Shown in pieces: positions 1 to 10,600 of a stretch of 10,600 nucleotides of DNA. This DNA comes from Promethearchaeati archaeon (lineage in GTDB: Archaea > Asgardarchaeota > Heimdallarchaeia > JABLTI01): positions 1-10,600 of the forward strand of contig JABLTI010000093.1 in assembly GCA_013166835.1 (NCBI GenBank), given 5' to 3'. A program made the translations under genes and the position numbers. Position 1 is the stretch's first letter. Every line of letters starts with the position of its first letter. The notes beneath the pieces were generated by a model. The model was not told the origin of the DNA and did not search any database. It saw nothing but the letters and a program-made list of their open reading frames with translations.

Positions 1-1041
1 ACCTGCTAGAGATACTTGTTCTCTATCGAACAATCCACATAAAGGACCAAAGGATGCAACTGTTTCAAATTCAGGTCCATCAGTTACTATCTCTTTAGAA
101 TCATGAACGATTACTGTGTGTTTAGCACATTTTATAGTGCAACCTGCACAACCAGAAGTGAAAACAGGTAAATGCTCCTTAATCGTTTTTTCTGTTAGGA
201 TTTCTGCTGGAAATTCTGATTCTGTAAAATAATAAGCAGGAACATCTCCAGCGAACATACCCATATCCATGTAAAGATTTGTTCCGTAAAGATATTGCAT
301 GATTGGGAGTAATTGCGATAGTTGTTCCTTTTCTCCATCAATCTTCTTTCGTAATTCTAACATAGCTTTCTTATCTTGCCCAGTAATCTTCGAATGTTTT
401 TGTATTGCAATAGCTTTGAGTTTCTTTGAACCCATGATTGCTCCTAAACCACATCTACCTTGTGCTCTACCCTCATCATTCATTATACAAGCATAACGAA
501 CTAGGTTTTCCGCTGCTGGTCCAATACAAGCAATTCGTAACCCATTGATTTTAATCTGTTCCTTAAGGATTTCTTGTGTTTCATAGGTTCCTTTACCCCA
601 GAGTTTGGTTGCATCTTTGAATTTTATTTCACCATTCTCAATGAGAATATAACATGGTTTTTTTGATTTCCCAGTTATTACTAGAGCATCATATCCTGAT
701 CTTCGGAGATTTATACAGAAGAAACCACCACTTGTTCCTTCTCCCCATTGATTTGTTAATGGCGAGATTCCTGATACTGAATATCTTCCTGATGCTGGAC
801 GAGGAGTGCCGGTCACTGGACCTGTTGCATAGACAATTGGATTTACTGAATCGTATGGATCTTTCTTCAATTTCTTGTAATCATCTTCGGAGAGTAAATC
901 ATAAATGAGCTTTGCACTTAATCCTGTCCCTCCAATATAATCTTCTGCGATTTCCGGATCGAGTGGTTTTACTACAACTTCTTTCTTAGTTAAATCGATA
1001 TAAGCTATTTTTCCATTGTAACCTGTCATTGTTTCAGTCAT
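1..1041 (-). CDS. aor: Aldehyde:ferredoxin oxidoreductase (tungsten-pterin AOR family), N-terminal part; runs off the left edge
   Basis: Manual translation from ATG at 1041: MTETMTGYNGKIAYIDLTKK...YIGGTGLSAK...TGPVTGT...SPLTNQWGEGTSGG...LRRSGYDALVITGKS...LWGKGTYET...IGPAAENLVRYACIMND...GRCGLGAIMGSKKLKAI...CAGCTIKC...GPEFET. These are typical AOR motifs including the CxxCxxxC Fe-S ligands. SD GGAGTGG at about 1049-1055. Absent from the ORF track because no stop falls in the window. Confidence 0.95.
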   Translation of the reverse strand, partial: MTETMTGYNGKIAYIDLTKKEVVVKPLDPEIAEDYIGGTGLSAKLIYDLLSEDDYKKLKKDPYDSVNPIVYATGPVTGTPRPASGRYSVSGISPLTNQWGEGTSGGFFCINLRRSGYDALVITGKSKKPCYILIENGEIKFKDATKLWGKGTYETQEILKEQIKINGLRIACIGPAAENLVRYACIMNDEGRAQGRCGLGAIMGSKKLKAIAIQKHSKITGQDKKAMLELRKKIDGEKEQLSQLLPIMQYLYGTNLYMDMGMFAGDVPAYYFTESEFPAEILTEKTIKEHLPVFTSGCAGCTIKCAKHTVIVHDSKEIVTDGPEFETVASFGPLCGLFDREQVSLAG

Positions 1042-1054
1042 TTTTTTTCCACTC

Positions 1055-2356
1055 CTAGTATACTAGTTTCTCCCCATCCCAAGCAGCTTCGAACATTCGT
1101 CTGTAGTTTTTTTCTCCTACTGGTCTGTAGGATGTTAATGTGCAAACATCTTCTTTTGAATATCTTGCAAGAACAGCCAGTTTACTCTGATAATCTGTTT
1201 TGGTAATTTTTGGTTCAGTAATTTCTTTCACGGAAGCTACTCCACCCATTGAACGTTGGAAGGCTTGTATTGCTTTGACTAGTGCTTCCAGTAAATCTTG
1301 TCTTGTTGAATATTTCTCTTTTTCAACTCCAAATAATGGACACAATTTGATCCATTTCTCTGTTACCTTGGCTTGCCAGGCAACGGATTGAGCTGAGAAC
1401 ATACCAACTGAGAGTCCATGATGGACATGCATAACTGCTCCGAAGGAATGACCAAGTGCATGTTCTATTCCAGGCATTGCATTATTGAATCCCATACCAG
1501 CCAATGTTGCAGCCCATTGCATGTGTTCCAAAGCTTCTTCATCTTTTGTTCCATATTTTACTAAGCGTGGCAGATACCGAAGTACTTCTTCAATTGCTAC
1601 CATATTTATCGCATCTGACAAAGGTGAACCCCAATTAGAGGTTATAGCTCCTAAACTGTGAGCTAGAGCATCTAATCCTGTTGCCATAATGAGGAAAGGT
1701 GGCAGTGTTTTCACAAATTTAGTGTCTAGAATAACATAATCTGGTAAGGTTTCATCCACAGATAAACTGATTTTTTTCGGAGGATCTCTTTTAGTATCAG
1801 TTATTATCGATGCTGTGGTTACTTCGCTTCCTGTTCCAATTGTTGTTGGAATTGCTACTAATGCTTTGACTTTTCTTCTTAATCCAACTGCATTATCTAG
1901 AATATCAATTTGCATGAGATTTATTCCGGGTTGCTCATAGACAATCCAGAGAGCTTTCGCTGCATCCAATACCGACCCACCTCCAACAGCAAGGAAGAGC
2001 GTTGGTTTAAAGTCATTACAAATTTTTACTCCTTCTTCAAGAATATCCATTGGAACTTCTGGTTCAACACCACTCCAAACTTTGATTTCGAATCCATTAT
2101 CTTCAAAATCAGGAGCTATATCTTCGTAAAATCTTTTTGTGAAAGAATCAGCTATGATAAGTAGGCGTTTTTCTCCTTCATCCAATCTTTTACCTAACTC
2201 AATAGCAACGGTATTTACACCAGTTTTTCCACCAAAAATACGATTCCCACTAAATGTATTCATGATCCCTTGCATTGCACGAGCTCCCATTAAACCTACA
2301 ACATCGTTGAGAGCTGGGCTTTCGTACCAAGGTATTTCAAAATCTTCATCAGACAA
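1055..2356 (-). CDS. Iron-containing (group III) alcohol dehydrogenase
   Basis: Motifs GGGSVLDAAK, PTTIGTGSEVT, GLDALAH, EHALGH and HHG (metal ligands). The ORF track starts at GTG 2365, but that GTG is part of a GGAGTG SD, so TTG at 2356 is the more likely start. Confidence 0.93.
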   Translation of the reverse strand: MSDEDFEIPWYESPALNDVVGLMGARAMQGIMNTFSGNRIFGGKTGVNTVAIELGKRLDEGEKRLLIIADSFTKRFYEDIAPDFEDNGFEIKVWSGVEPEVPMDILEEGVKICNDFKPTLFLAVGGGSVLDAAKALWIVYEQPGINLMQIDILDNAVGLRRKVKALVAIPTTIGTGSEVTTASIITDTKRDPPKKISLSVDETLPDYVILDTKFVKTLPPFLIMATGLDALAHSLGAITSNWGSPLSDAINMVAIEEVLRYLPRLVKYGTKDEEALEHMQWAATLAGMGFNNAMPGIEHALGHSFGAVMHVHHGLSVGMFSAQSVAWQAKVTEKWIKLCPLFGVEKEKYSTRQDLLEALVKAIQAFQRSMGGVASVKEITEPKITKTDYQSKLAVLARYSKEDVCTLTSYRPVGEKNYRRMFEAAWDGEKLVY

Positions 2357-2453
2357 TAAGAACACTCCAAGTTTAGTTAAACTGCAAATACTAGCAAATC
2401 ATGCTTTATTAATTTTCATCTTTTTTATGGTAGCATAATTTATATCAAAAATG

Positions 2454-2492
2454 AATAAAACTAGGAATAAATTAATAATTTCTAGTTTTATT
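2454..2492. promoter_or_regulatory. Inverted repeat in the divergent ADH / histidine kinase promoter region; candidate operator
   Basis: AATAAAACTAG (2454-2464) and CTAGTTTTATT (2482-2492) form perfect 11-bp arms around a 17-nt spacer that is partly symmetric. Confidence 0.5.
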
Positions 2493-2573
2493 TCTTAAAC
2501 AACAGCACTTAATTAATTGACAAAATTCAGTATTTAGTATATTGTCCAATATTAAATCCTTGAAGATGTTATT

Positions 2574-3719
2574 ATGCCCAAAGCTAAAACACATTTTGCC
2601 TCTCCTGATCGGCTAGAAAAAGGAGAATTAAAGGAGCAATACAAAAAAGTTCTTTCTTTAGAACATACAAAAGAAATTCTTAATTCATTCCCAAATCTAG
2701 TTGTTGTTTTAAATAAGCAAAGACAAGTTATTTTTGGAAATGAAACCTTTGTAAAAATGTTAGGACTTAGTGAATTTGAGGATGCTCTTGGTCAAAGACC
2801 TGGAGAATTATTGAAATGTGTTAATTCAGCTATCCTTGAAGGTGGTTGTGGTACATCAAGAAATTGCCGTTACTGTGGAGTTGTTCTAACTATATTGAAA
2901 AGCCTAGAATCTGGTGAAGAAGAAGAGAGTGAAGCAAGACTAACTACCAGGCAACAAGACAAAATAGTTCCACTAGATTTGCAAGTCATAGCAAAACCTC
3001 TGTTCATGGATGGAGATCAATTCATTGTAGCAATCATGACGGATATTAGCATTCTAAAAAGAAAGGAGTATCTCGAGCGAACTTTTATGCATGATATGAT
3101 TAATACTACTTGGTCGTTATCAGGTAGAATTGAATTCTTCCCGAGAGATGGTTTAAATGAAATCCAGGATGAGTATTTTAATCGGATTAAAATAGAAATT
3201 GGCAAACTTCTTGATGATATTCAAGCACAAAGAGATCTATTAAAATTAGACAAAAAGGAACTTGTCACTGAATTCAGAGAAATTGATTCCCTTGAATTAA
3301 TACAAATGATTATTCATACCATGTCAACTGATAAAACTGCTAAAAACAAAAAAATAATTATAGCTAAAAATTGTTGTTCAGCTAAATTAAAAACCGATGT
3401 ACGATTATTACGTCGATCACTGATAAATCTTCTAAAAAATGCCTTAGAAGCAAGTACTGTTGATGAGGAAGTAATTATTGGTTGTGAAAAATCTAGTAAC
3501 GGAATTACTTTCTTTATAAAAAATAAAGCTGTATTATCTGAAGAAGTTAAAAGTCAAATATTTCAACGTTTCTTCTCAACAAAAGGACAAGGTAGAGGTT
3601 TGGGAACATACAGTGTGAGGATACTTGTGGAAGAGCATTTGAATGGTCAAGTTAATTTTGAATCATCAGAGAAAACTGGTACAATATTTAGAATCATTTT
3701 ACCACTAAAAATTAATTAG
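2574..3719 (+). CDS. Cytoplasmic PAS-domain sensor histidine kinase (HisKA-like + HATPase_c)
   Basis: PAS start (ILNSFPNLVVVLNKQRQVIFGN), H-box FMHDMIN, N-box LINLLKNALEA, F/G boxes IFQRFFSTKGQGRGLGTY and GTIFRIILP. No hydrophobic TM segment. Confidence 0.92.
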   Translation: MPKAKTHFASPDRLEKGELKEQYKKVLSLEHTKEILNSFPNLVVVLNKQRQVIFGNETFVKMLGLSEFEDALGQRPGELLKCVNSAILEGGCGTSRNCRYCGVVLTILKSLESGEEEESEARLTTRQQDKIVPLDLQVIAKPLFMDGDQFIVAIMTDISILKRKEYLERTFMHDMINTTWSLSGRIEFFPRDGLNEIQDEYFNRIKIEIGKLLDDIQAQRDLLKLDKKELVTEFREIDSLELIQMIIHTMSTDKTAKNKKIIIAKNCCSAKLKTDVRLLRRSLINLLKNALEASTVDEEVIIGCEKSSNGITFFIKNKAVLSEEVKSQIFQRFFSTKGQGRGLGTYSVRILVEEHLNGQVNFESSEKTGTIFRIILPLKIN

Positions 3720-3742
3720 AGTAATTTAATTAGTGAATTGAT

Positions 3743-4465
3743 ATGAAAATTAAAGATTTCTTCCTAGGAAATTTCAGTCATGAGTTTTGGAAAAATCGCG
3801 TATCACCATTAATAATTATAGAATTTCTTGGTACTCTTATGATAGCTTGGGCTCTCCGACCAGTGTGGCTTGGTGAGGAATGGATCTATTTCCCTTTTAA
3901 ATTTCATATAAGTGGATTAGGCAATGGACGTATGGAAGGAAATATTGGTGCATGGATTTTTGTTCTTGGATTCTGTCTCCTACCACTTCTTGGTACTGTT
4001 TGGAGTAATTTTATTTACAAGCAATTTGCGAAAATTTCCAAGGTGTTTGCTGTGATACTTTGGATACATCTGGAATTCAGTATGATTTGCGTTGCTTTTG
4101 TAGGTATTTTTGATGGCATTTGGCCCACTCAAAAAATTTCCGGATTTATGCACTCCTTTGGAGCTACTTTTTCTTTCTTGGGTTTTACAATTGCTGCTGT
4201 TTTAGTCTTCATTGTGATGTTGATTATTTTTTGGAAGATTCCATCAGAATCTAGACAAGTACTACACCAGGTAATGTTCTTCTTAGTCATTGTGGAATTG
4301 GTAGGAGTTTACATCATATTTCGAATAATTGGAACCGCATTTTGGCAGTGGACGTTGATGCTTTCTTTAATGTTGTTCATATTTATTATAAGCAGATTCT
4401 TTCCTGAAAATTTGATTTCACACGAAAACAAAAAGGATGAAACTTTAGAAATCCTTCCAGAATGA
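3743..4465 (+). CDS. Integral membrane protein with about 6 TM helices, DUF998/Frag1-like
   Basis: Multiple hydrophobic segments; HISGLG, VGIF and HSFGA(T)FSF resemble the DUF998 pattern; GTGA SD at about 3733; 23 nt after the kinase stop. Confidence 0.7.
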   Translation: MKIKDFFLGNFSHEFWKNRVSPLIIIEFLGTLMIAWALRPVWLGEEWIYFPFKFHISGLGNGRMEGNIGAWIFVLGFCLLPLLGTVWSNFIYKQFAKISKVFAVILWIHLEFSMICVAFVGIFDGIWPTQKISGFMHSFGATFSFLGFTIAAVLVFIVMLIIFWKIPSESRQVLHQVMFFLVIVELVGVYIIFRIIGTAFWQWTLMLSLMLFIFIISRFFPENLISHENKKDETLEILPE

Positions 4466-4519
4466 GAGAATACCAATATTAAACATAATATATATTAAAA
4501 CCAAAAGCAATTCTTTAAT

Positions 4520-5872
4520 ATGTTTTCAAAGGGCGATAAATATAAAAGAAAATTTCTGGTTTTTCTGTTTTTCTTTATTCTTCTTGCACCTTTACCTAGT
4601 TTTAGTAATTCTGCTTTCTCTTCTAAACAAGAAAAATACTATGATTCTGAATTACTATATGCCTTTGAAACTCAAAATCTTAATCTAGTAAAATCTTTAG
4701 CTACTACTAATAATTATAGTTTAATTAGTCAATGGAATGGTAGTTTAGGTAGTACATTTGATGTTTTCGTTGTTGACGAATTTGCTTATCTTGCCGATAA
4801 AGACGGAGGGTTAGTTATACTCGATATAACCAATCTAACCCAACCTCGAGAAATAGGTCGTAAAGCCATTGCTGGTGATATCGTTGGTGCAGTTAATCTC
4901 TTTATAGAAAATGATTATGCGTACATCGCAAATGATGTTGATGGAGCTAGAATTATTGATATTAGTAATAAATCAGAACCTAAATTAATTAGTGAATATC
5001 ATGATGAGTTATATTATTGGGATGTTTACGTAAGTGGGAATTATGCTTTTTATACTACAATTGGAGATGGTTTAGAGATAATTAATGTGAGTAATAAAGC
5101 GATTCCAAATGAAATTGCTCAATACAATATGGGAGGATTTATCTGGAGTGTTTGGGGTTCTGAAAATTATATATATATTACAGATCTTAATACAGGCCTG
5201 GAAATAATTAATGTAACAGAAATTACAACTCCTACAAAAGTTGGTTTTCATGATGTTTATACAGGGCAACCCTTTTCTGTTTTTGTAGAGGAAGATGTTG
5301 CTTTTATTGCTGTTGGAAATGAAGGTCTTGAATTGGTCAATATTAGTGAAAAAAGCAGCCTTGTAAAATTAAGCCAATTTAAAGAAAGTGGTTCAATAGT
5401 CGATGTACACTCTAACAATGATACTGTTTTTCTTGCAGATAAATTCAATGGTTTGAAAATATTAGATATCTCCAATAAATCAAATCCAGTTAAAGTTGGT
5501 TCTTATTCTCTTAGTGGTGATTCTTGGAATGTTTTCTATCAAGAAGAAGTAGTTTACTTAGCGAATGGACAAAATGGTTTAGCAATAATAGGAATTGATA
5601 GAGACAATGATGATCTCGCTGATTATTTAGAATTAGAAATTTACGATACAGATCCTTTGAATCCGGATTCCGATGGAGACGGATTTCATGATGGTTATGA
5701 AATAGAAATGGGAACGAATCCCAATGATCCTAATGATTATCCTATTATTCCTAGTCCAAGTCCAACAGAAACCAGTGGATTCAAATATGGCTTGATTTTT
5801 GTAATTTCATTTATTTTCATAAAAATATTTTTTGTTATAAAAATTAATAAACGAAAGAATAAACTAAAATGA
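4520..5872 (+). CDS. Membrane-anchored surface protein: signal peptide, about 7 LVIVD repeats (beta-propeller), acidic Ca-binding repeats, C-terminal TM and basic tail
   Basis: N-terminal KYKRK plus hydrophobic stretch; repeated 'V.v.gnyAYva....GL.IidisnkxxP' units; DRDNDDLAD...DSDGDGFHDGYE; Pro/Ser/Thr linker; TM followed by KINKRKNKLK. Confidence 0.88.
   Translation: MFSKGDKYKRKFLVFLFFFILLAPLPSFSNSAFSSKQEKYYDSELLYAFETQNLNLVKSLATTNNYSLISQWNGSLGSTFDVFVVDEFAYLADKDGGLVILDITNLTQPREIGRKAIAGDIVGAVNLFIENDYAYIANDVDGARIIDISNKSEPKLISEYHDELYYWDVYVSGNYAFYTTIGDGLEIINVSNKAIPNEIAQYNMGGFIWSVWGSENYIYITDLNTGLEIINVTEITTPTKVGFHDVYTGQPFSVFVEEDVAFIAVGNEGLELVNISEKSSLVKLSQFKESGSIVDVHSNNDTVFLADKFNGLKILDISNKSNPVKVGSYSLSGDSWNVFYQEEVVYLANGQNGLAIIGIDRDNDDLADYLELEIYDTDPLNPDSDGDGFHDGYEIEMGTNPNDPNDYPIIPSPSPTETSGFKYGLIFVISFIFIKIFFVIKINKRKNKLK
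4727..5596 (+). repeat. Protein-level LVIVD repeat region (about 43 aa period)
   Basis: GLVILDIT, GARIIDIS, GLEIINVS, GLEIINVT, GLELVNIS, GLKILDIS, GLAIIGID. Boundaries approximate. Confidence 0.85.
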
Positions 5873-5880
5873 GAAATAAA

Positions 5881-5940
5881 AGAAAGGAAGTTAAACCTAT
5901 TGAAGGTTAACACCTCTTTCTATTCTATTTTTTATCTTTT
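5881..5940. terminator. Imperfect hairpin with A/T tracts between convergent genes; possible bidirectional terminator
   Basis: AGAAAGG-AA-GTTAAACCT-attga-AGGTTAAC-A-CCTCTTTCT followed by T-runs, with A-rich sequence on the other side. Confidence 0.45.
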
Positions 5941-5957
5941 CAAGAGACATTAATTAA

Positions 5958-6593
5958 TTAGCAGCAACAATCTTCAATTTCTTTAGCGATATCAAATTCT
6001 AAACTTAGAGCTAACCAACCAATGTAATCAATTAAATAGTCAATTAAACCCCAATCTAAATTTGATATTTTCTCCATTGTTTCTTCATTTGCGTTTCCAA
6101 AAATTTCATTTATAAGTTGAAATTTTCTAGATTCAAGAGTGCTAATTAACTTATCAACACCCTTATCTGTTTTTAGTTTGTCTTTGAATTTGCCTGCGAG
6201 TAAAGAATAGATTGTATCGTAAAACAATCCTACATCTTTTTCTTCCATGGAATCTATTTTTTTCTCAAGATTTGCTGTTAAGAAAATCTTTGCAGTTCGA
6301 ATGTATATTGTTTCACTCTGAAGATCACCTGCACCCTTAGATGTAATTCGCTTACCTGCTTTTGCGACTAAACCTATTTCTATTAAGTTCTTTAGGTATC
6401 GATAAATTGACTTATCAGATTTCTTCATACCTTTATGAGCAAAATCACTCTCTAATTCCTTTACAGTTCTAGGACCTACTCTTAAGAATTTTAAAATGTA
6501 GTATAAGTTTTCATCTCCATGTAAGATCTCTGCTTGCTTTTCAGATAGATCAATTACTGTTTTTTGGTTGAATGTTATTACATCTTGGCTCAT
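5958..6593 (-). CDS. Winged helix-turn-helix (ArsR-like) transcriptional regulator with a C-terminal helical domain and terminal CCC
   Basis: ILKFLRVGPRTVKEL...SDKSIYRYLKNLIEIGLVAKAG...ETIYIRTAKIF is a wHTH pattern. SD AAGGTGG precedes ATG 6593; the ORF-track GTG at 6602 lies within this SD. Confidence 0.85.
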   Translation of the reverse strand: MSQDVITFNQKTVIDLSEKQAEILHGDENLYYILKFLRVGPRTVKELESDFAHKGMKKSDKSIYRYLKNLIEIGLVAKAGKRITSKGAGDLQSETIYIRTAKIFLTANLEKKIDSMEEKDVGLFYDTIYSLLAGKFKDKLKTDKGVDKLISTLESRKFQLINEIFGNANEETMEKISNLDWGLIDYLIDYIGWLALSLEFDIAKEIEDCCC

Positions 6594-6608
6594 ATTTACC
6601 ACCTTTTT

Positions 6609-6725
6609 TTCTTATTCTCTTATATTATGTTCTCATGATAATATATTGTATTCTCATGTATTTAAATATTATTCTTAAGTCGTAATATTAGATTCTAATG
6701 AAATAATATCATTTTCTCATCTTAT
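6609..6725. repeat. Degenerate 21-bp tandem direct repeat array with a TTCT(C/T/A)A core; candidate cooperative operator
   Basis: Cores start at 6609, 6630, 6651, 6672, 6693 and 6714. Units: tatattatgTTCTCAtgataa / tatattgtaTTCTCAtgtatt / taaatattaTTCTTAagtcgt / aatattagaTTCTAAtgaaat / aatatcattTTCTCAtcttat. Confidence 0.8.
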
Positions 6726-6764
6726 GAGAAACCTTTATATATAAGTGTGAGAATAATATTCTCA
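6713..6764 (+). promoter_or_regulatory. Archaeal-type promoter (BRE/TATA) flanked by two palindromes of the TGAGAA/TTCTCA box
   Basis: TTTCTCAT-ctt-ATGAGAAA (6713-6731); TTTATATATA at 6734-6743 preceded by purine-rich GAGAAA; perfect TGAGAATA-a-TATTCTCA at 6748-6764, near the expected transcription start. Confidence 0.7.
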
Positions 6765-6789
6765 AACAATAAGAATGGTGTTAACAAAA

Positions 6790-6891
6790 ATGAATAAAAA
6801 AGCTGAAAGCAAATACAGAAAAAAAATGATGAATGAAGATGTTGAGAAACAAAAACGAAAATTAGCTTTACTAGTTGGACACTATAGATAA
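6790..6891 (+). CDS. Small basic peptide 1 (33 aa; 38 aa if started at ATG 6775): MNKKAESKYRKKMMNEDVEKQKRKLALLVGHYR
   Basis: Manual translation; GGTG SD at 6777-6780, 9 nt before the ATG; directly downstream of the TATA box. No recognised homology. Confidence 0.6.
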   Translation: MNKKAESKYRKKMMNEDVEKQKRKLALLVGHYR

Positions 6892-6923
6892 AAAAAATGA
6901 GAAAATTACTGGAGAAAAATAAA

Positions 6924-7013
6924 ATGATGAATAAGAAAAATAAGATTAAAAATCAAATCAAAAAGTACCAGAATAAAGCAAGAATGGATTATCAGATGTT
7001 AATTGGGCGATAA
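6924..7013 (+). CDS. Small basic peptide 2 (29 aa; 38 aa if started at ATG 6897): MMNKKNKIKNQIKKYQNKARMDYQMLIGR
   Basis: Manual translation; GGAG SD at 6911-6914, 9 nt before the ATG; tandem TAATAA stops; followed by T-tracts. Confidence 0.55.
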   Translation: MMNKKNKIKNQIKKYQNKARMDYQMLIGR

Positions 7014-7040
7014 TAAAATTATCCTTGACAACTAATTAAC

Positions 7041-7086
7041 CTTCTTTTAAAATTCGTTCTTGCTTTTTTTTATGTACTTTGTTTTA
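7041..7086 (+). terminator. Oligo-T tracts; candidate archaeal terminator for the peptide transcript
   Basis: CTTCTTTT...GCTTTTTTTTATGTACTTTGTTTT. Strand composition switches from A-rich in the peptide ORFs to T-rich just after them. Confidence 0.45.
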
Positions 7087-7100
7087 CTCATTCTAATTGA

Positions 7101-7988
7101 TTACAATTGTTTTACTTCTTCAATGAAGGTTAATGTTTCCTTACTGAAATCTTCAGGTTTTAGTATTGCGGTATATGCGTGTACAGAACCTTCAATTGTA
7201 ACAATTTTATGATATTTCAGTTTCTCTGAATATTTCTTGAGGTTTCTTTGTACAATTTCATTCGGTGCTTCTGCTTCGTCTGGCAACCAAAGAATCGGAC
7301 AAGTTATTTTGTCAAAATATTCTTGAAATCTAATATCATAAAGTGGCCAAATAAAATTCCAACTGATTTTTCCTTCTTGTGGAGTCCGGAATTTTCCTTC
7401 TTTAGTTTCGAAGATTTGATCTTCCGCTTGAATTCGAAGTACTTCTGACCACGAAACGCCTTCATTTTTCCAAGCTTCTTTGAAGTATTCTAAACAATCC
7501 TCTTTGGAATCGTACAATTTTACTGGTTTCTCTAGAATTATTTCTTTCAATTCTTTTCTTGCTTTATCTATGGCTTCTTCTGTTAAGATCTGATCTTTGC
7601 TGTCAGGTCCTACAAGGTCATATAAACCACCATCAAGAACCATAGCAATTGCTTTTTCTGGATAATTTGCTGCAAAACTTATTGCTGCATCTGCTCCTAA
7701 TGAGCTCCCAACAATGTATGCTTTCTCTATTCCTAGTTGTTTCATTAAGGCAGCTATATCACTTGCCATATCATCAATGTGACATTCATTTGGTTTATCA
7801 GAGAAACCATGACATCTCATGTCTAATGTTAATATTCGATAATCTTTTTTCAAATAGGGAATAACTCCATTCCACATACCAATAAGGGCACCACCGTAAG
7901 GTAAGAGAATAATTGTTTCTTTTCCTTCGTTTGGTATGTCAAGATATCGAATGTTTAAACCATTGACCTTTGTCATCTTTGTGTTCAT
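7101..7988 (-). CDS. Alpha/beta fold hydrolase
   Basis: LDMRCHGFSDKP, nucleophile elbow VGSSLGA, C-terminal His in GSVHAY. GTGA SD precedes ATG 7988; the ORF track extends to 8009. Confidence 0.9.
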   Translation of the reverse strand: MNTKMTKVNGLNIRYLDIPNEGKETIILLPYGGALIGMWNGVIPYLKKDYRILTLDMRCHGFSDKPNECHIDDMASDIAALMKQLGIEKAYIVGSSLGADAAISFAANYPEKAIAMVLDGGLYDLVGPDSKDQILTEEAIDKARKELKEIILEKPVKLYDSKEDCLEYFKEAWKNEGVSWSEVLRIQAEDQIFETKEGKFRTPQEGKISWNFIWPLYDIRFQEYFDKITCPILWLPDEAEAPNEIVQRNLKKYSEKLKYHKIVTIEGSVHAYTAILKPEDFSKETLTFIEEVKQL

Positions 7989-8072
7989 TTTTATCACAAA
8001 AATTCTCATAAATTATAATTATAAATAATATAGATAGGTCTTGGAAAATCACTGCTAGATAAAATTCGAAAA

Positions 8073-8756
8073 TTAGCTTTCTAGATTCTCTATTGGAAAT
8101 GGTGCTCCATGACCAGGATAAATGGTTTTAACACCATTATTAATTATTTTTCTCCAGCTTTGCATCAGCATTTCCTCTTCAATTATAAACGCTGGTCTTT
8201 TTCCTTTTCCGAAATAAAAGGTGCTTCTATTTGAGCAAGTATCTCCTACAAATCCTTGTCCATCTTTTAGAACTAATGTAATGCTATCAATAGTATGACC
8301 AAAAGTTGTTATGATTTTTCCATTTATTCCAATTTTTTTGAGTAGTTTATTATTGTCTTTCTTAATTGGAATAATTCTTTCATCAGCAATTGTTACACGT
8401 GGAACTCCATGTTTCATTGCTAAAACTGCAAGTTTCTTCATAAATTTGTAGTAGAAATTCACAGGTTTTGATTCTGGTTCAATTGTCCCATTAAATAAAT
8501 GTGTTATTGCATTCTCATGGACTATTAGCTTCGCTTCACTTGCTTGCAGAAATTGTTCTGCAAAACCAGAGTGATCCGCATGTGAATGTGTTAAGAGGAG
8601 ATATTTTATTTCAGTGATTTCAATTTTTAATTTCTTTAATTTTCTTAGAAATCTCCTGAAATCATGTGGTATTGACACATCAACTATGAGGAAGCCATCA
8701 TTTGTCTTTAACAAATAGCTATTAGTTGATCCCCTAATTATGATTACTTCAGTCAT
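8073..8756 (-). CDS. MBL-fold metallo-hydrolase (glyoxalase II-like)
   Basis: NSYLL, THSHADH, GHTIDS, VGD and YPGHG motifs. Confidence 0.92.
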   Translation of the reverse strand: MTEVIIIRGSTNSYLLKTNDGFLIVDVSIPHDFRRFLRKLKKLKIEITEIKYLLLTHSHADHSGFAEQFLQASEAKLIVHENAITHLFNGTIEPESKPVNFYYKFMKKLAVLAMKHGVPRVTIADERIIPIKKDNNKLLKKIGINGKIITTFGHTIDSITLVLKDGQGFVGDTCSNRSTFYFGKGKRPAFIIEEEMLMQSWRKIINNGVKTIYPGHGAPFPIENLES

Positions 8757-8824
8757 TCAGACAACCCACACTAGAGACAATTAGTAAGAATAATTATTTG
8801 AATGATTTGCAATAATTTCCCTTC

Positions 8825-9601
8825 TCAATCATTTTTTGGTTTGAAGGTCATGGTCCATTTCTCGTCCCCTTCCCAGCTATCAAAAACATGACCTAATCCT
8901 TCTTTTCTAGCGAGTTTTTCCATTTCTCTTAAGAGAATTTGTTGTATTTGATAATCACCTGTCTCGTATATTTTAAACAACATTTCAATAAGTTCCTTAG
9001 AGGACCAAGGAAATTTCTTTAGGGGGAATTTTTCTAATTCATATTCAAGATATTTGTAATAGGGACTTAATCTCGAGTCATGAAATGCAAATGCACAAAT
9101 TAGAAATAGCCTTACAGAGTCTGCTGCCTCTAATCGATAACCAACATGATTATTATCTCGCAAGCTTTTCAGTGAACGATAAACAGAATTAATATAACCA
9201 TCTAGATAACCAGCAACGTAACCCTTCCAATATTTTTCTGGTATCTTCCCTTTTTCATCAATAATTTCTTGTAATTCACCATTTGTTTTGTCTTTTATTG
9301 TTTGAACATGAGCGTAGTTGTATCTATCCCATTCATATTCTGTTCCAATTTCTGCGTGTTCTTCAAATTCTTTTATAGTTTTTACTCCACAATCTATTCC
9401 TTTGATTTCATCATATTTCTCAAATTTTTCTCTGTACTCTTTTATCACGTCTTCTTTCACAATCACTAAGAAATCGTAATCAGAATATTCTTTATAAAAT
9501 CCCTTCCCTCGAGAGCCACCGAGAACTAATCCCAATATATTTGGATCTTTCTCAGATTCCTTTTTTATTTGCTCAAAAATCTCATGTATTGATTTGGTCA
9601 T
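8825..9601 (-). CDS. Pol-beta superfamily nucleotidyltransferase with a C-terminal helical domain (KNTase-like architecture)
   Basis: LGGSRGKG...SDYDFLVIV...GID supplies the GS, DxD and third Asp signature; the C-terminal half is helical. Confidence 0.85.
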   Translation of the reverse strand: MTKSIHEIFEQIKKESEKDPNILGLVLGGSRGKGFYKEYSDYDFLVIVKEDVIKEYREKFEKYDEIKGIDCGVKTIKEFEEHAEIGTEYEWDRYNYAHVQTIKDKTNGELQEIIDEKGKIPEKYWKGYVAGYLDGYINSVYRSLKSLRDNNHVGYRLEAADSVRLFLICAFAFHDSRLSPYYKYLEYELEKFPLKKFPWSSKELIEMLFKIYETGDYQIQQILLREMEKLARKEGLGHVFDSWEGDEKWTMTFKPKND

Positions 9602-9658
9602 ACAATCAGGGAAAATTTTAACTTTAAAAGATTTGTTAAAAGAAAAAGAAACTGGAAG

Positions 9659-10045
9659 CTAACCTCCAGCTGCACCATAAGTGAATCCTGGAGCACACCA
9701 GCTTGTTTTGTCATGTTTCAACCAAGCATCAAGTGAATCTTGTTCATAAACAACATTATCATTAATGATAAGTTTAATTTTCTCTATGCACCAATCATCA
9801 TCTTTACTATGAGATTTCTTTCTTAAGCATAAATACCTAAAATCAGAGGAATTTACACCCATTGAAACATCTAATTCAAAAGCATCAGTTTTTCCCTTTT
9901 CAAATTCATCATGCTTAGTAATATCGAGTTGCCATGTATGTCCACCCACATAAAGTTCAACAGCATTGTCTGTATCACTTCTTCGTTCTTTACAAGTTGT
10001 AATTTCAATTACAATTTTTTCTATTTTCTCGTATTCAGATTTCAA
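9659..10045 (-). CDS. Stand-alone PLAT/LH2 domain protein
   Basis: IEITT...SDTDNAVELYVGG...FEKGKTDAFEL...LCLRK...DDWCIEKIKLII matches the PLAT pattern (T..aGTD..V.l.l.G / Fe.G..D.F / dW.l..v.v). GAAGGA SD precedes a TTG start. Confidence 0.75.
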   Translation of the reverse strand: MKSEYEKIEKIVIEITTCKERRSDTDNAVELYVGGHTWQLDITKHDEFEKGKTDAFELDVSMGVNSSDFRYLCLRKKSHSKDDDWCIEKIKLIINDNVVYEQDSLDAWLKHDKTSWCAPGFTYGAAGG

Positions 10046-10132
10046 CGATTTATCCTTCTAGTATATTTTTTATGTTGTTTAACTTGAATCAGCTATAAAT
10101 TACTATGGAAATAGGAACTAAACTTGAAAACA

Positions 10133-10600
10133 TCACTCCTTCGATTTCTTCTTATTTACTTTTTCAATAAATTTTTCAATTTTTTTCCTTGGAATTTTTT
10201 TAGCGGTCATATGTGAAGGAATAGCGAAATCCCATTCGTAATCTAAGATTGTTTTCAATGTATCTTGATACTGCTTGAAATCATCATGATATTTTTCGAA
10301 AACCTCTCGCAATCCAAAAGGCATAAACATTATGGTATCACCTAGAAAAAGCAACTTTTCTTTCTCGAGTAACAAACAAATATGTCCCCAGGAATGACCT
10401 GGAACATGAATAGCTTTAAGCTTTAATTCTTCATCAATAATTTCATTATGTTTTATGGTACGATTAGGATTAATAATTTGACCTCGGAGAGCATTAGCAA
10501 AATGAGGGGCTTCATCTTCATGACAAACAATTTCAACTCGTTCTTGTGGAGATTCAGGAGCACTTATTGTAGTCATTTCTTTCATTAATGGAGCCAATCC
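10133..10600 (-). CDS. MBL-fold metallo-hydrolase, C-terminal part; start lies outside the window
   Basis: IVCHEDEA, HVPGHSWGHICLL, LFLGD and IPSH. The frame is open to the window edge and the HxHxDH motif is expected upstream. Confidence 0.85.
   Translation of the reverse strand, partial: GLAPLMKEMTTISAPESPQERVEIVCHEDEAPHFANALRGQIINPNRTIKHNEIIDEELKLKAIHVPGHSWGHICLLLEKEKLLFLGDTIMFMPFGLREVFEKYHDDFKQYQDTLKTILDYEWDFAIPSHMTAKKIPRKKIEKFIEKVNKKKSKE

Follow-up and report, generated by a model that had tools for sequence, protein, structure and literature searches.

The window analysed here is the whole stretch of 10,600 nucleotides (nt) at positions 1 to 10,600 of the forward strand of contig JABLTI010000093.1, from the assembly GCA_013166835.1 of a Promethearchaeati archaeon of the Heimdallarchaeia (Asgardarchaeota, JABLTI01). 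A 498-nt intergenic space of this window (6603-7100), located between two minus-strand genes, carries in tandem on the plus strand two small open reading frames, ORF1 (6790..6891) and ORF2 (6924..7013), both of which are very probably genuine small protein genes. Comparative analysis places them in a many-copy, strongly basic protein family that appears restricted, among the genomes searched, to one Heimdall (Asgard) genus. In addition, the alignments indicate that codons of ORF2 double as one arm of a long-range RNA stem preceding a T-run, a property that is new here. Three signals agree without recourse to expression data: genome comparison, ribosome-binding sites and the covariation seen at a synonymous site. 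Frames of this size are no longer than the minimum that gene callers usually accept, and about 80 of them across 11 genomes make up a coherent, conserved family among the archaea that stand closest to eukaryotes.

A family of small basic proteins

The family was delineated with a profile of ten peptides, which led to further copies in the same genome and in the genus and from there to the alignments A2 (37 rows) and A7 (52 rows). Its members are proteins of about 28 residues (24-33 amino acids (aa), median 29), a range into which both frames of the window fit. The median net charge is +6 and the median grand average of hydropathy (GRAVY) is -0.99 across the family. The sequence is built from a Lys-rich first half, an Arg that is invariant over the 52 rows and, towards the C-terminus, a hydrophobic stretch closed by a near-invariant Gly. 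Both frames of the window show this C-terminus and are preceded by the ribosome-binding tetramer described below. In both alignments the C-terminal motif reads, in order, basic residue, aromatic or aliphatic residue, Ala-Leu, two variable positions, Gly. An earlier reading of this DNA, made from the sequence only and referred to below as the sequence-only reading, had remarked that the C-termini of the two frames are alike and had suggested that a conserved hydrophobic C-terminal L[VI]G motif could be a docking or processing determinant. The likeness belongs to a family-wide motif, far beyond chance according to the profile E-values, and the hydrophobic end is real across the family alignments.

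ORF2 is a core member of the family and matches profile A7 with an E-value of 6.7e-13. In the six-frame set of the window's own genome (90,664 segments), the family profiles, which contain the window's own rows, retrieved ORF2 at E 2e-13 and the ORF1-type frames at E 1e-11 to 1e-9. Against a profile without the ORF1-type rows, still holding its own row, ORF2 gave an E-value of 2.3e-13. Matches to A7 were obtained in 11 of the 400 genomes of the phylum, that is, in the window's own genome and in all 10 other genomes of genus g1, and none was obtained in the 389 genomes of 84 other genera; absence is to be read as not found in the genomes searched, many of which are 64-92% complete. The same profile marks 80 family places, 2-14 per genome, of which 79 are without internal stop, and tandem pairs occur at 21 of the 59 family loci.

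Among 1.84 billion representative proteins, 40 clusters match the family at E<=0.001 (best 9.1e-10); their lengths are 27-86 aa, nearly all 27-50 aa, and the same motif is present in all of them. Metagenome contigs provided three loci only, and viral contigs no relative. No family of Pfam, NCBIfam, PHROGs or PADLOC matches the peptides, a profile search of the PDB with the peptides returned no sequence at E<=10, the ESM Atlas gave no usable match, and a literature search at the level of titles and abstracts turned up no description of such a family, which thus appears to be without described relatives in the libraries searched.

AlphaFold predicts ORF1 to be one helix (residues 3-32 according to DSSP), with a predicted local distance difference test score (pLDDT) of 87 that falls to a mean of 61 for residues 31-33; the sequence-only reading had proposed to predict helicity. 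A role of the C-terminal Gly as a helix cap is not borne out by this model, in which Gly30 is still inside the helix. In the peptides the longest stretch without charge, located at the C-terminus, is 7 residues in the median; the N-termini are rich in Lys and devoid of a secretion signal, and the helical hydrophobic moment of the family is no higher than in shuffled sequences. An amphipathic or membrane-active helix is rejected on account of this polarity and hydrophobic moment, and the evidence gathered on the peptides contains no pointer to cleavage.

Coding character and translation starts

When one pair is taken from each of 11 groups of close relatives, the differences at codon positions 1, 2 and 3 amount to 27, 21 and 49 (chi-square p 0.0012). 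A Shine-Dalgarno-like tetramer is present at -16 to -4 before 78 of the 90 assigned starts, as compared with 1166 of 9546 (12%) of all ATGs at the same 59 loci. The length differences among members are whole codons, and the similarity of the peptides persists where the DNA is dissimilar. The invariant Arg is also kept in operon-type members that are devoid of the stem described below; the constraint therefore bears on the protein and not only on the RNA. The sequence-only reading had cautioned that richness in Lys and Asn is expected in A-rich DNA, and indeed the small-frame region has a G+C content of 23-25% and an A-rich plus strand. This caveat is answered by the retention of frames, starts and motif where the DNA has diverged. 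Frameshifts, stops and a lack of codon-level conservation, which the same reading regarded as fatal to it, are not the general picture: 79 of the 80 frames are open and the third-position excess is present, the exceptions being a frameshifted copy in G005:C55 and one internal stop.

The conserved short form of ORF1 encodes 33 aa plus stop and is open in genomes G007, G003, G001 and G009. A purine-rich Shine-Dalgarno-like tetramer (6777..6780, plus strand) stands 9 nt 5' of its ATG at 6790. ORF2 encodes 29 aa plus stop, or 28 aa from the ATG at 6927; its own tetramer (6911..6914, plus strand) lies 9 nt 5' of ATG 6924 and 12 nt 5' of ATG 6927, and its N-terminus is accordingly Met-Met-Asn-Lys-Lys or Met-Asn-Lys-Lys. 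The sequence-only reading had started from two maximal frames of 117 nt (38 aa) each, at 6775-6891 and 6897-7013, and both are present in the window. The upstream ATGs of these long forms (6775 and 6897) are absent from G001, G009 and the single-frame loci, where the tetramers are kept; that of ORF1 is retained in G001 although this genome has no ATG corresponding to 6775. The conserved ORF1 product thus begins at 6790 and that of ORF2 at 6924 or 6927, and the 38-aa long forms are rejected because their ATGs lack conservation. A leaderless start at 6775 may exist in the window's species alone.

The equal length of the two maximal frames, true in the window, is a coincidence, given that the first maximal frame has 123 nt in G003 and that the frames of G001 have 96 and 90 nt including the stop. 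Of the other features pointed out by the sequence-only reading, a Shine-Dalgarno motif 9 nt before each Met-Asn-Lys-Lys start is correct as to the existence of both tetramers, but for ORF2 this spacing fits the ATG at 6924 and not the one at 6927. The word KMMN shared by the long forms does exist; it is neither conserved nor more than trivial.

Orthologous loci and the relationship between the two frames

A DNA search in 40 relatives found the 2-kb neighbourhood whole in G007 and G003, at 82% identity, and the intergenic DNA is 89-90% identical to these two genomes. Detailed by region, the identity is 78% for the regulator gene, 80% for the hydrolase gene, 89% for ORF1, 97% for the spacer, 97-98% for ORF2 and 90% for the 3' region. 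Both frames are open, in the same order, in G007, G003, G001 (about 70% DNA identity) and G009. At three paralogous loci (two in G005, one in G004) a single frame stands where the window has two; the missing piece extends from just after the ORF1 start to just after the ORF2 start.

ORF1 is probably a diverged paralogue of ORF2, as judged by the comparison of their profiles. With hhalign, the ORF1 type (alignment A6, 5 rows) aligns to the rest of the family (A7, 52 rows) over 22 columns with a probability of 93% and an E-value of 3.5e-7. The ORF1-type frames, known from the window, G007, G003, G001 and G009, always precede an ORF2-type frame. A hidden Markov model (HMM) made of ORF1-type rows only has 5 family members among its 14 best non-self matches, at E 0.5 to 5.5. 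A DNA-level tandem repeat of about 135 nt was also considered, and none is left. The paralogy suggested by the sequence-only reading is hence supported by the profile-profile match and by the conserved two-frame order, but neither by a DNA repeat nor by a plain HMM, which misses ORF1 when the ORF1-type rows are withheld.

A long-range stem overlapping the end of ORF2

Folding of the plus strand pairs part of ORF2 with an element just before a run of eight T (z -2.76). The 5' arm of the stem (6977..6985, plus strand; columns 18-26 of alignment A4 in the RNAalifold helix) lies inside ORF2 and covers the end of a Lys codon, the Ala and Arg codons and the start of a Met codon. The 3' arm (7056..7064, plus strand), located by RNAalifold and by pairing counts, leads into the T8 run (7064..7071, plus strand), read from the sequence as the presumed transcription terminator. 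The 22-nt element 7056-7077 has two occurrences in the 3.56-Mb genome, each 45-70 nt after a pair of family frames, and it is present at 15 of the 25 related loci first examined. In all 15 singly folded loci, the minimum free energy (MFE) structure pairs the Ala/Thr-Arg-Met/Ile codons with the element, and RNAalifold predicted a 9-bp helix unaided from 17 aligned loci. In the window the loop measures about 70 nt (55-105 nt in other loci); it contains the coding end with the stop codon. An A-rich stretch 5' of the 5' arm can pair with the T-run.

The pairing is substantiated by covariation. Stem cells are paired in 98% of cases, as opposed to 35-56% when the partner is slid, and the covariation score of 0.249 (0.149 in shuffled alignments) was equalled by none of 500 shuffles. 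At the pair that involves the third position of the Ala codon, 8 loci have C-G, 7 have A-U, 1 has U-G and a further one U-A, the residue remaining Ala throughout. At the loci where Ala is replaced by Thr the stem partner is altered to match, and 13 distinct arm pairs occur among 21 loci. The conserved hexamer that follows the T-run (7072..7077, plus strand) is kept in most of these 21 loci, across locus classes; the MFE fold pairs it with 6965-6968, a partner whose conservation does not extend beyond the three closest genomes.

The distribution of the stem is selective. At least 8 of the 9 stem positions are paired and followed by a T-run in 21 of 38 last frames of stand-alone units, versus 6 of 114 shifted control arms. 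The combination is found in 0 of 17 frames having a same-strand gene within 45 nt downstream and in 0 of 26 non-last frames. Such a distribution, limited to frames that close a stand-alone unit, is in keeping with a part played by the stem in the formation or protection of the transcript's 3' end. A bacterial intrinsic terminator consists of a hairpin followed by a U-run. The stem of the window resembles this arrangement in that its 3' arm leads straight into 7-8 T, and differs from the G+C-rich, short-looped bacterial hairpin by its loop of about 70 nt and by a 5' arm made of conserved sense codons. A consensus scan for simple terminators of the bacterial type found no site here. According to PMC8716108, archaeal terminators are U-tracts acting with aCPSF1 and are not known to need a hairpin; a stabilising role of the stem would therefore be at least as likely as a terminating one. 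The unit of the window appears similar to such archaeal terminators, with a run of at least five T (T8) at its end. Conserved codons overlapping a terminator-proximal stem represent a concrete dual constraint on a coding sequence, which may explain why tiny genes can look 'too conserved' at the DNA level. No Rfam family matches the window at the gathering threshold, a result that is neutral as to a non-coding RNA, and a tRNA scan of it found none.

A conserved short hairpin-like sequence was noticed in the spacer between the small frames at the two-frame loci situated beside the adenosine-kinase gene (L041, 1415-1465, and the same place in L050, L051 and L052).

Putative promoter, palindromes and the divergent regulator

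A TATA-box-like octamer (6734..6741, plus strand), read from the sequence and identical in G007, G003 and G001, is the putative promoter of the small genes; with the usual archaeal TATA spacing, the transcript would start near 6764. Two palindromes surround this box. Palindrome 1 (6713..6731; inverted repeat I7, 8-nt arms, 3-nt spacer, 100% complementary) abuts the TATA box, constitutes a candidate operator and is retained in G001, G004 and G005. Palindrome 2 (6749..6763; inverted repeat I3), a candidate repressor site, is conserved in the orthologues and stands between the TATA box and the presumed transcript start. A six-base half-site of the palindromes recurs upstream of the regulator's own gene, and palindromes of this half-site are found at most 200 nt upstream at 13 of the 17 family loci linked to the regulator, versus 0 of the 42 others. 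Operators overlapping the promoter are usual for archaeal repressors. On these grounds the regulator may be a repressor of both its own gene and the small-gene unit, acting through the candidate palindromes.

This regulator is encoded by the winged-helix gene at 5958-6602 (minus strand), the start side of which borders the intergenic space. The protein has 211 aa when read from its ATG (5961..6593, minus strand, stop at 5958-5960), is divergent from the small frames and gives a weak match to Pfam HTH_5. Its AlphaFold model, based on 14 sequences only, has a mean pLDDT of 74.5. In Foldseek, PH1932 (1uly, 2cwe; E 1.8e-6) and Phr (2p4w) rank first, followed by PadR, and no repeat proteins are matched. 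Against Phr and PH1932 the E-values range from 1.8e-6 to 4.6e-4 with a probability of 1.00, but the template modelling (TM) scores are 0.31-0.43 and the identity is 15-18%. No match was found in the PDB at the sequence level. As modelled, the regulator would share with Phr of Pyrococcus furiosus and PH1932 of P. horikoshii the combination of a winged helix at the N-terminus with long helices at the C-terminus, and it departs from them by the modest TM-scores and low identity as well as by terminal cysteines in most of its paralogues. Indeed, at the end corresponding to 5961-5975, 10 of 14 paralogues (alignment A5) finish with two or three cysteines within their last 2-4 residues. Such cysteines are not known from Phr-type regulators; they could constitute a redox, metal or lipid-attachment site. 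A complex prediction combining the regulator (A5) with ORF1 (A2) gave a score of 0.01, which counts neither way.

Another type of promoter was observed at other family members, in which a 13-nt palindrome precedes the TATA box by about 45 nt. In the window's own genome its sites are C59:21724-21740, C123:3549-3565, C253:41368-41384, C72:2030-2046 and C249:231-247, six genome matches being obtained at up to 2 mismatches. This promoter also precedes a bactofilin-like 390-aa gene (C72) and a 32-aa frame (C249), and may define a small regulon.

Family loci and their neighbours

The 59 family loci fall into about 10 syntenic classes common to several species. The largest, with 17 loci, is the one in which a paralogue of the divergent Phr-like regulator accompanies the small frames; this paralogue is always upstream and divergent, and it is the nearest upstream opposite-strand neighbour at 16 of these loci. 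Nine loci are flanked by a HEAT-Ras GTPase gene on one side and an adenosine-specific kinase gene on the other. At 8-9 loci the family member precedes, by 16-31 nt, the gene of a 350-372-aa protein whose C-terminal domain is of ArsR type, and at 5 loci it lies 30-39 nt upstream of a bactofilin-domain protein. The remaining classes are placed after a Gar1 gene (5-6 loci), ahead of a 94-aa protein and close to a 219-aa HTH_5-like gene (4 loci) and after a 143-149-aa ArsR-type gene (3 loci), and a few further loci fall in other classes. Four classes, that is about half of the loci, involve winged-helix proteins. Even if the classes are few, this recurrence of winged-helix neighbours is suggestive.

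In five genomes, a bactofilin-domain protein is encoded on the same strand 3' of a family member (C123:3611-4941 of the window's own genome, which is L072, and L090, L096, L103 and L116). The two genes look like a two-gene operon.

Proposed mechanism and alternative explanations

The favoured explanation, considered likely, is that ORF1 and ORF2 are genuine protein genes forming one short two-gene transcription unit. This unit would be transcribed from the TATA box at 6734-6741 and repressed by the divergent Phr/PH1932-like winged-helix protein by means of the two palindromes flanking that box. The transcript would end at the T8 run, and the long-range stem would help to form or to protect the 3' end of the messenger. 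The most speculative part concerns the peptides themselves, which might be small adaptors whose hydrophobic C-terminal patch docks on a larger partner and whose Lys-rich helix contacts an acidic surface or nucleic acid. Such a partner could have a connection with the winged-helix proteins of ArsR type encoded next to about half of the family loci.

Several observations weigh against this explanation. Between ORF1 and its counterparts in G007 and G003 the changes are few, 3/3/5 over the codon positions, and the non-synonymous codons (6) exceed the synonymous ones (3). The loci counted are mutual orthologues and paralogues, so that the p-values overstate the support. Two damaged copies were observed: in G005:C55 (L017, about 1855-1960) the loss of 1 nt in an A-run causes a frameshift, and G002:C258:3663-3746, the one of the 80 family places with an internal stop, contains an internal TAA; both could be pseudogenes or homopolymer assembly errors. 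The HMM built without ORF1-type rows did not retrieve ORF1 at E<=10. At the window's own locus, the third positions of both frames are 90% identical to those of G007, versus 63% in the flanking genes (p 6e-6); the stem would account for part of these frozen synonymous sites. The 5' leader (26/26) and the spacer (31/32) are nearly or fully identical, a conservation that the stem does not account for, and the only conserved RNA structure detected in leader, ORF1 and spacer is a 5-bp hairpin devoid of covariation. Since the whole transcript region is more conserved than the flanking genes, a role at the RNA level is inseparable from coding at this locus. The operator, promoter, terminator and repression are deduced from position and conservation alone, and no public RNA runs containing the stretch of the window turned up.

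The high conservation of the transcript, greater than in the genes on either side, third positions and non-coding parts included, together with the presence of a real conserved RNA stem, is what a non-coding RNA or cis-acting element would display if the frames were open by chance in A-rich DNA. That no protein is made is nevertheless very improbable: 79 of the 80 frames are open, third positions change most across the family, the tetramer precedes 78 of 90 starts, the likeness of the peptides outlasts that of the DNA, the covarying pair keeps the Ala codon synonymous, and no conserved structure was found outside the 3' stem. The stem also evokes leader or arrest peptides, in which translation of the last frame would control the stem, and hence termination or messenger stability, the released peptide being functionless. 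Consistent with this idea, the conserved residues gather in the 11 codons that precede the stop, the 5' arm lies within the coding sequence, and a family member is located 16-45 nt upstream of a larger same-strand gene at 17 loci. It is precisely these operon-type members, where such a control would make sense, that are devoid of the stem (0 of 17), and in the window the next gene is convergent, leaving no downstream gene to control. The Lys-rich N-terminal part and the length are also conserved, and archaeal termination at U-tracts, which is not known to need a hairpin (PMC8716108), does not help this explanation either; it is regarded as improbable.

Small size, cationic character (median +6), frequent tandem arrangement (21 of 59 loci) and an expansion restricted to one lineage are shared with membrane-active peptides such as type I toxins, leaderless archaeocins or bacteriocin-like tandem cationic peptides. 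It would be most surprising if the family belonged to them, because its members are very hydrophilic (GRAVY -0.99), have uncharged runs of median 7 residues and show the hydrophobic moment of shuffled sequences. In addition, no transporter, immunity or toxin-antitoxin family was found among the 111 nearest neighbours and no PADLOC match was obtained, and the loci are syntenic across species and not mobile. The alternative in which the peptides are ligands or cofactors of winged-helix factors (co-repressor, anti-repressor or feedback signal), so that regulator and peptide form a self-contained switch, draws on the paralogues of the window's regulator, upstream and divergent at 17 of 59 loci, and on three more classes that adjoin ArsR-type (HTH_5/HTH_20) proteins of 350-372 aa (16-31 nt downstream), 143-149 aa (upstream) and 219-220 aa (upstream). 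Of the 219-220-aa neighbours, one matched HTH_5 at E 5.7e-5, but none of the three scanned at 1e-5 (L080, L083, L110) did. Yet at least 24 of the 59 loci have no such neighbour, for example the Ras-GTPase/adenosine-kinase, Gar1/NAD-kinase and bactofilin loci. Winged-helix proteins are common in archaea, the roughly 10 locus classes are not independent, and adjacency fits equally well peptides that are the regulated output, so that this cofactor role is judged unlikely. Should it be true that the peptides modulate winged-helix regulators, this would be a new type of control in archaeal transcription. A bolder version, also doubtful, would be a peptide layer of gene control in which dozens of helical 28-residue proteins, each produced from a small unit of its own, bind and switch ArsR/Phr-type factors or their targets, and in which the coding sequence doubles as the arm of a terminator or stability stem, protein and RNA 3' end co-evolving.

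Functionally studied archaeal small proteins are the subject of PMC10714827 and PMC11456600. Those of Methanosarcina mazei resemble the members of the present family in having fewer than 50 residues, in being encoded by stand-alone short frames with their own expression signals, and in being too small for catalysis and expected to bind a larger partner. The family of the window differs by being multi-copy (2-14 per genome), found in one genus among the genomes searched and often tandem; a sequence relation was neither tested for nor found. The M. mazei proteins reportedly bind glutamine synthetase or an ammonium transporter. Peptide-regulator pairs are also known in Gram-positive bacteria and phages, with the RRNPP family and the arbitrium system AimR-AimP. 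These pairs are similar in that a short peptide gene stands beside the gene of a DNA-binding regulator and in that the conserved residues are at the C-terminus of the peptide. Unlike them, the family peptides have no signal peptide or hydrophobic N-terminus, the genes are divergent, and 42 of the 59 family loci are without the regulator. As modelled, the regulator of the window would consist of a winged helix and a helical tail, with no repeat-type peptide-binding domain similar to tetratricopeptide repeats.

Other genes of the window

On the 3' side, the intergenic space is bordered by the end of an alpha/beta-hydrolase gene (7101-8009, minus strand), which is convergent to the small frames. 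A 450-aa protein (4520-5872, plus strand) contains six LVIVD repeats and a bacterial TSP3 repeat, and is probably a surface beta-propeller protein. PLAT/LH2 domains are mostly known from eukaryotic lipoxygenases and polycystins. Such a domain is present (E 1.7e-8) in a 128-aa protein encoded at 9659-10045 on the minus strand of the window.

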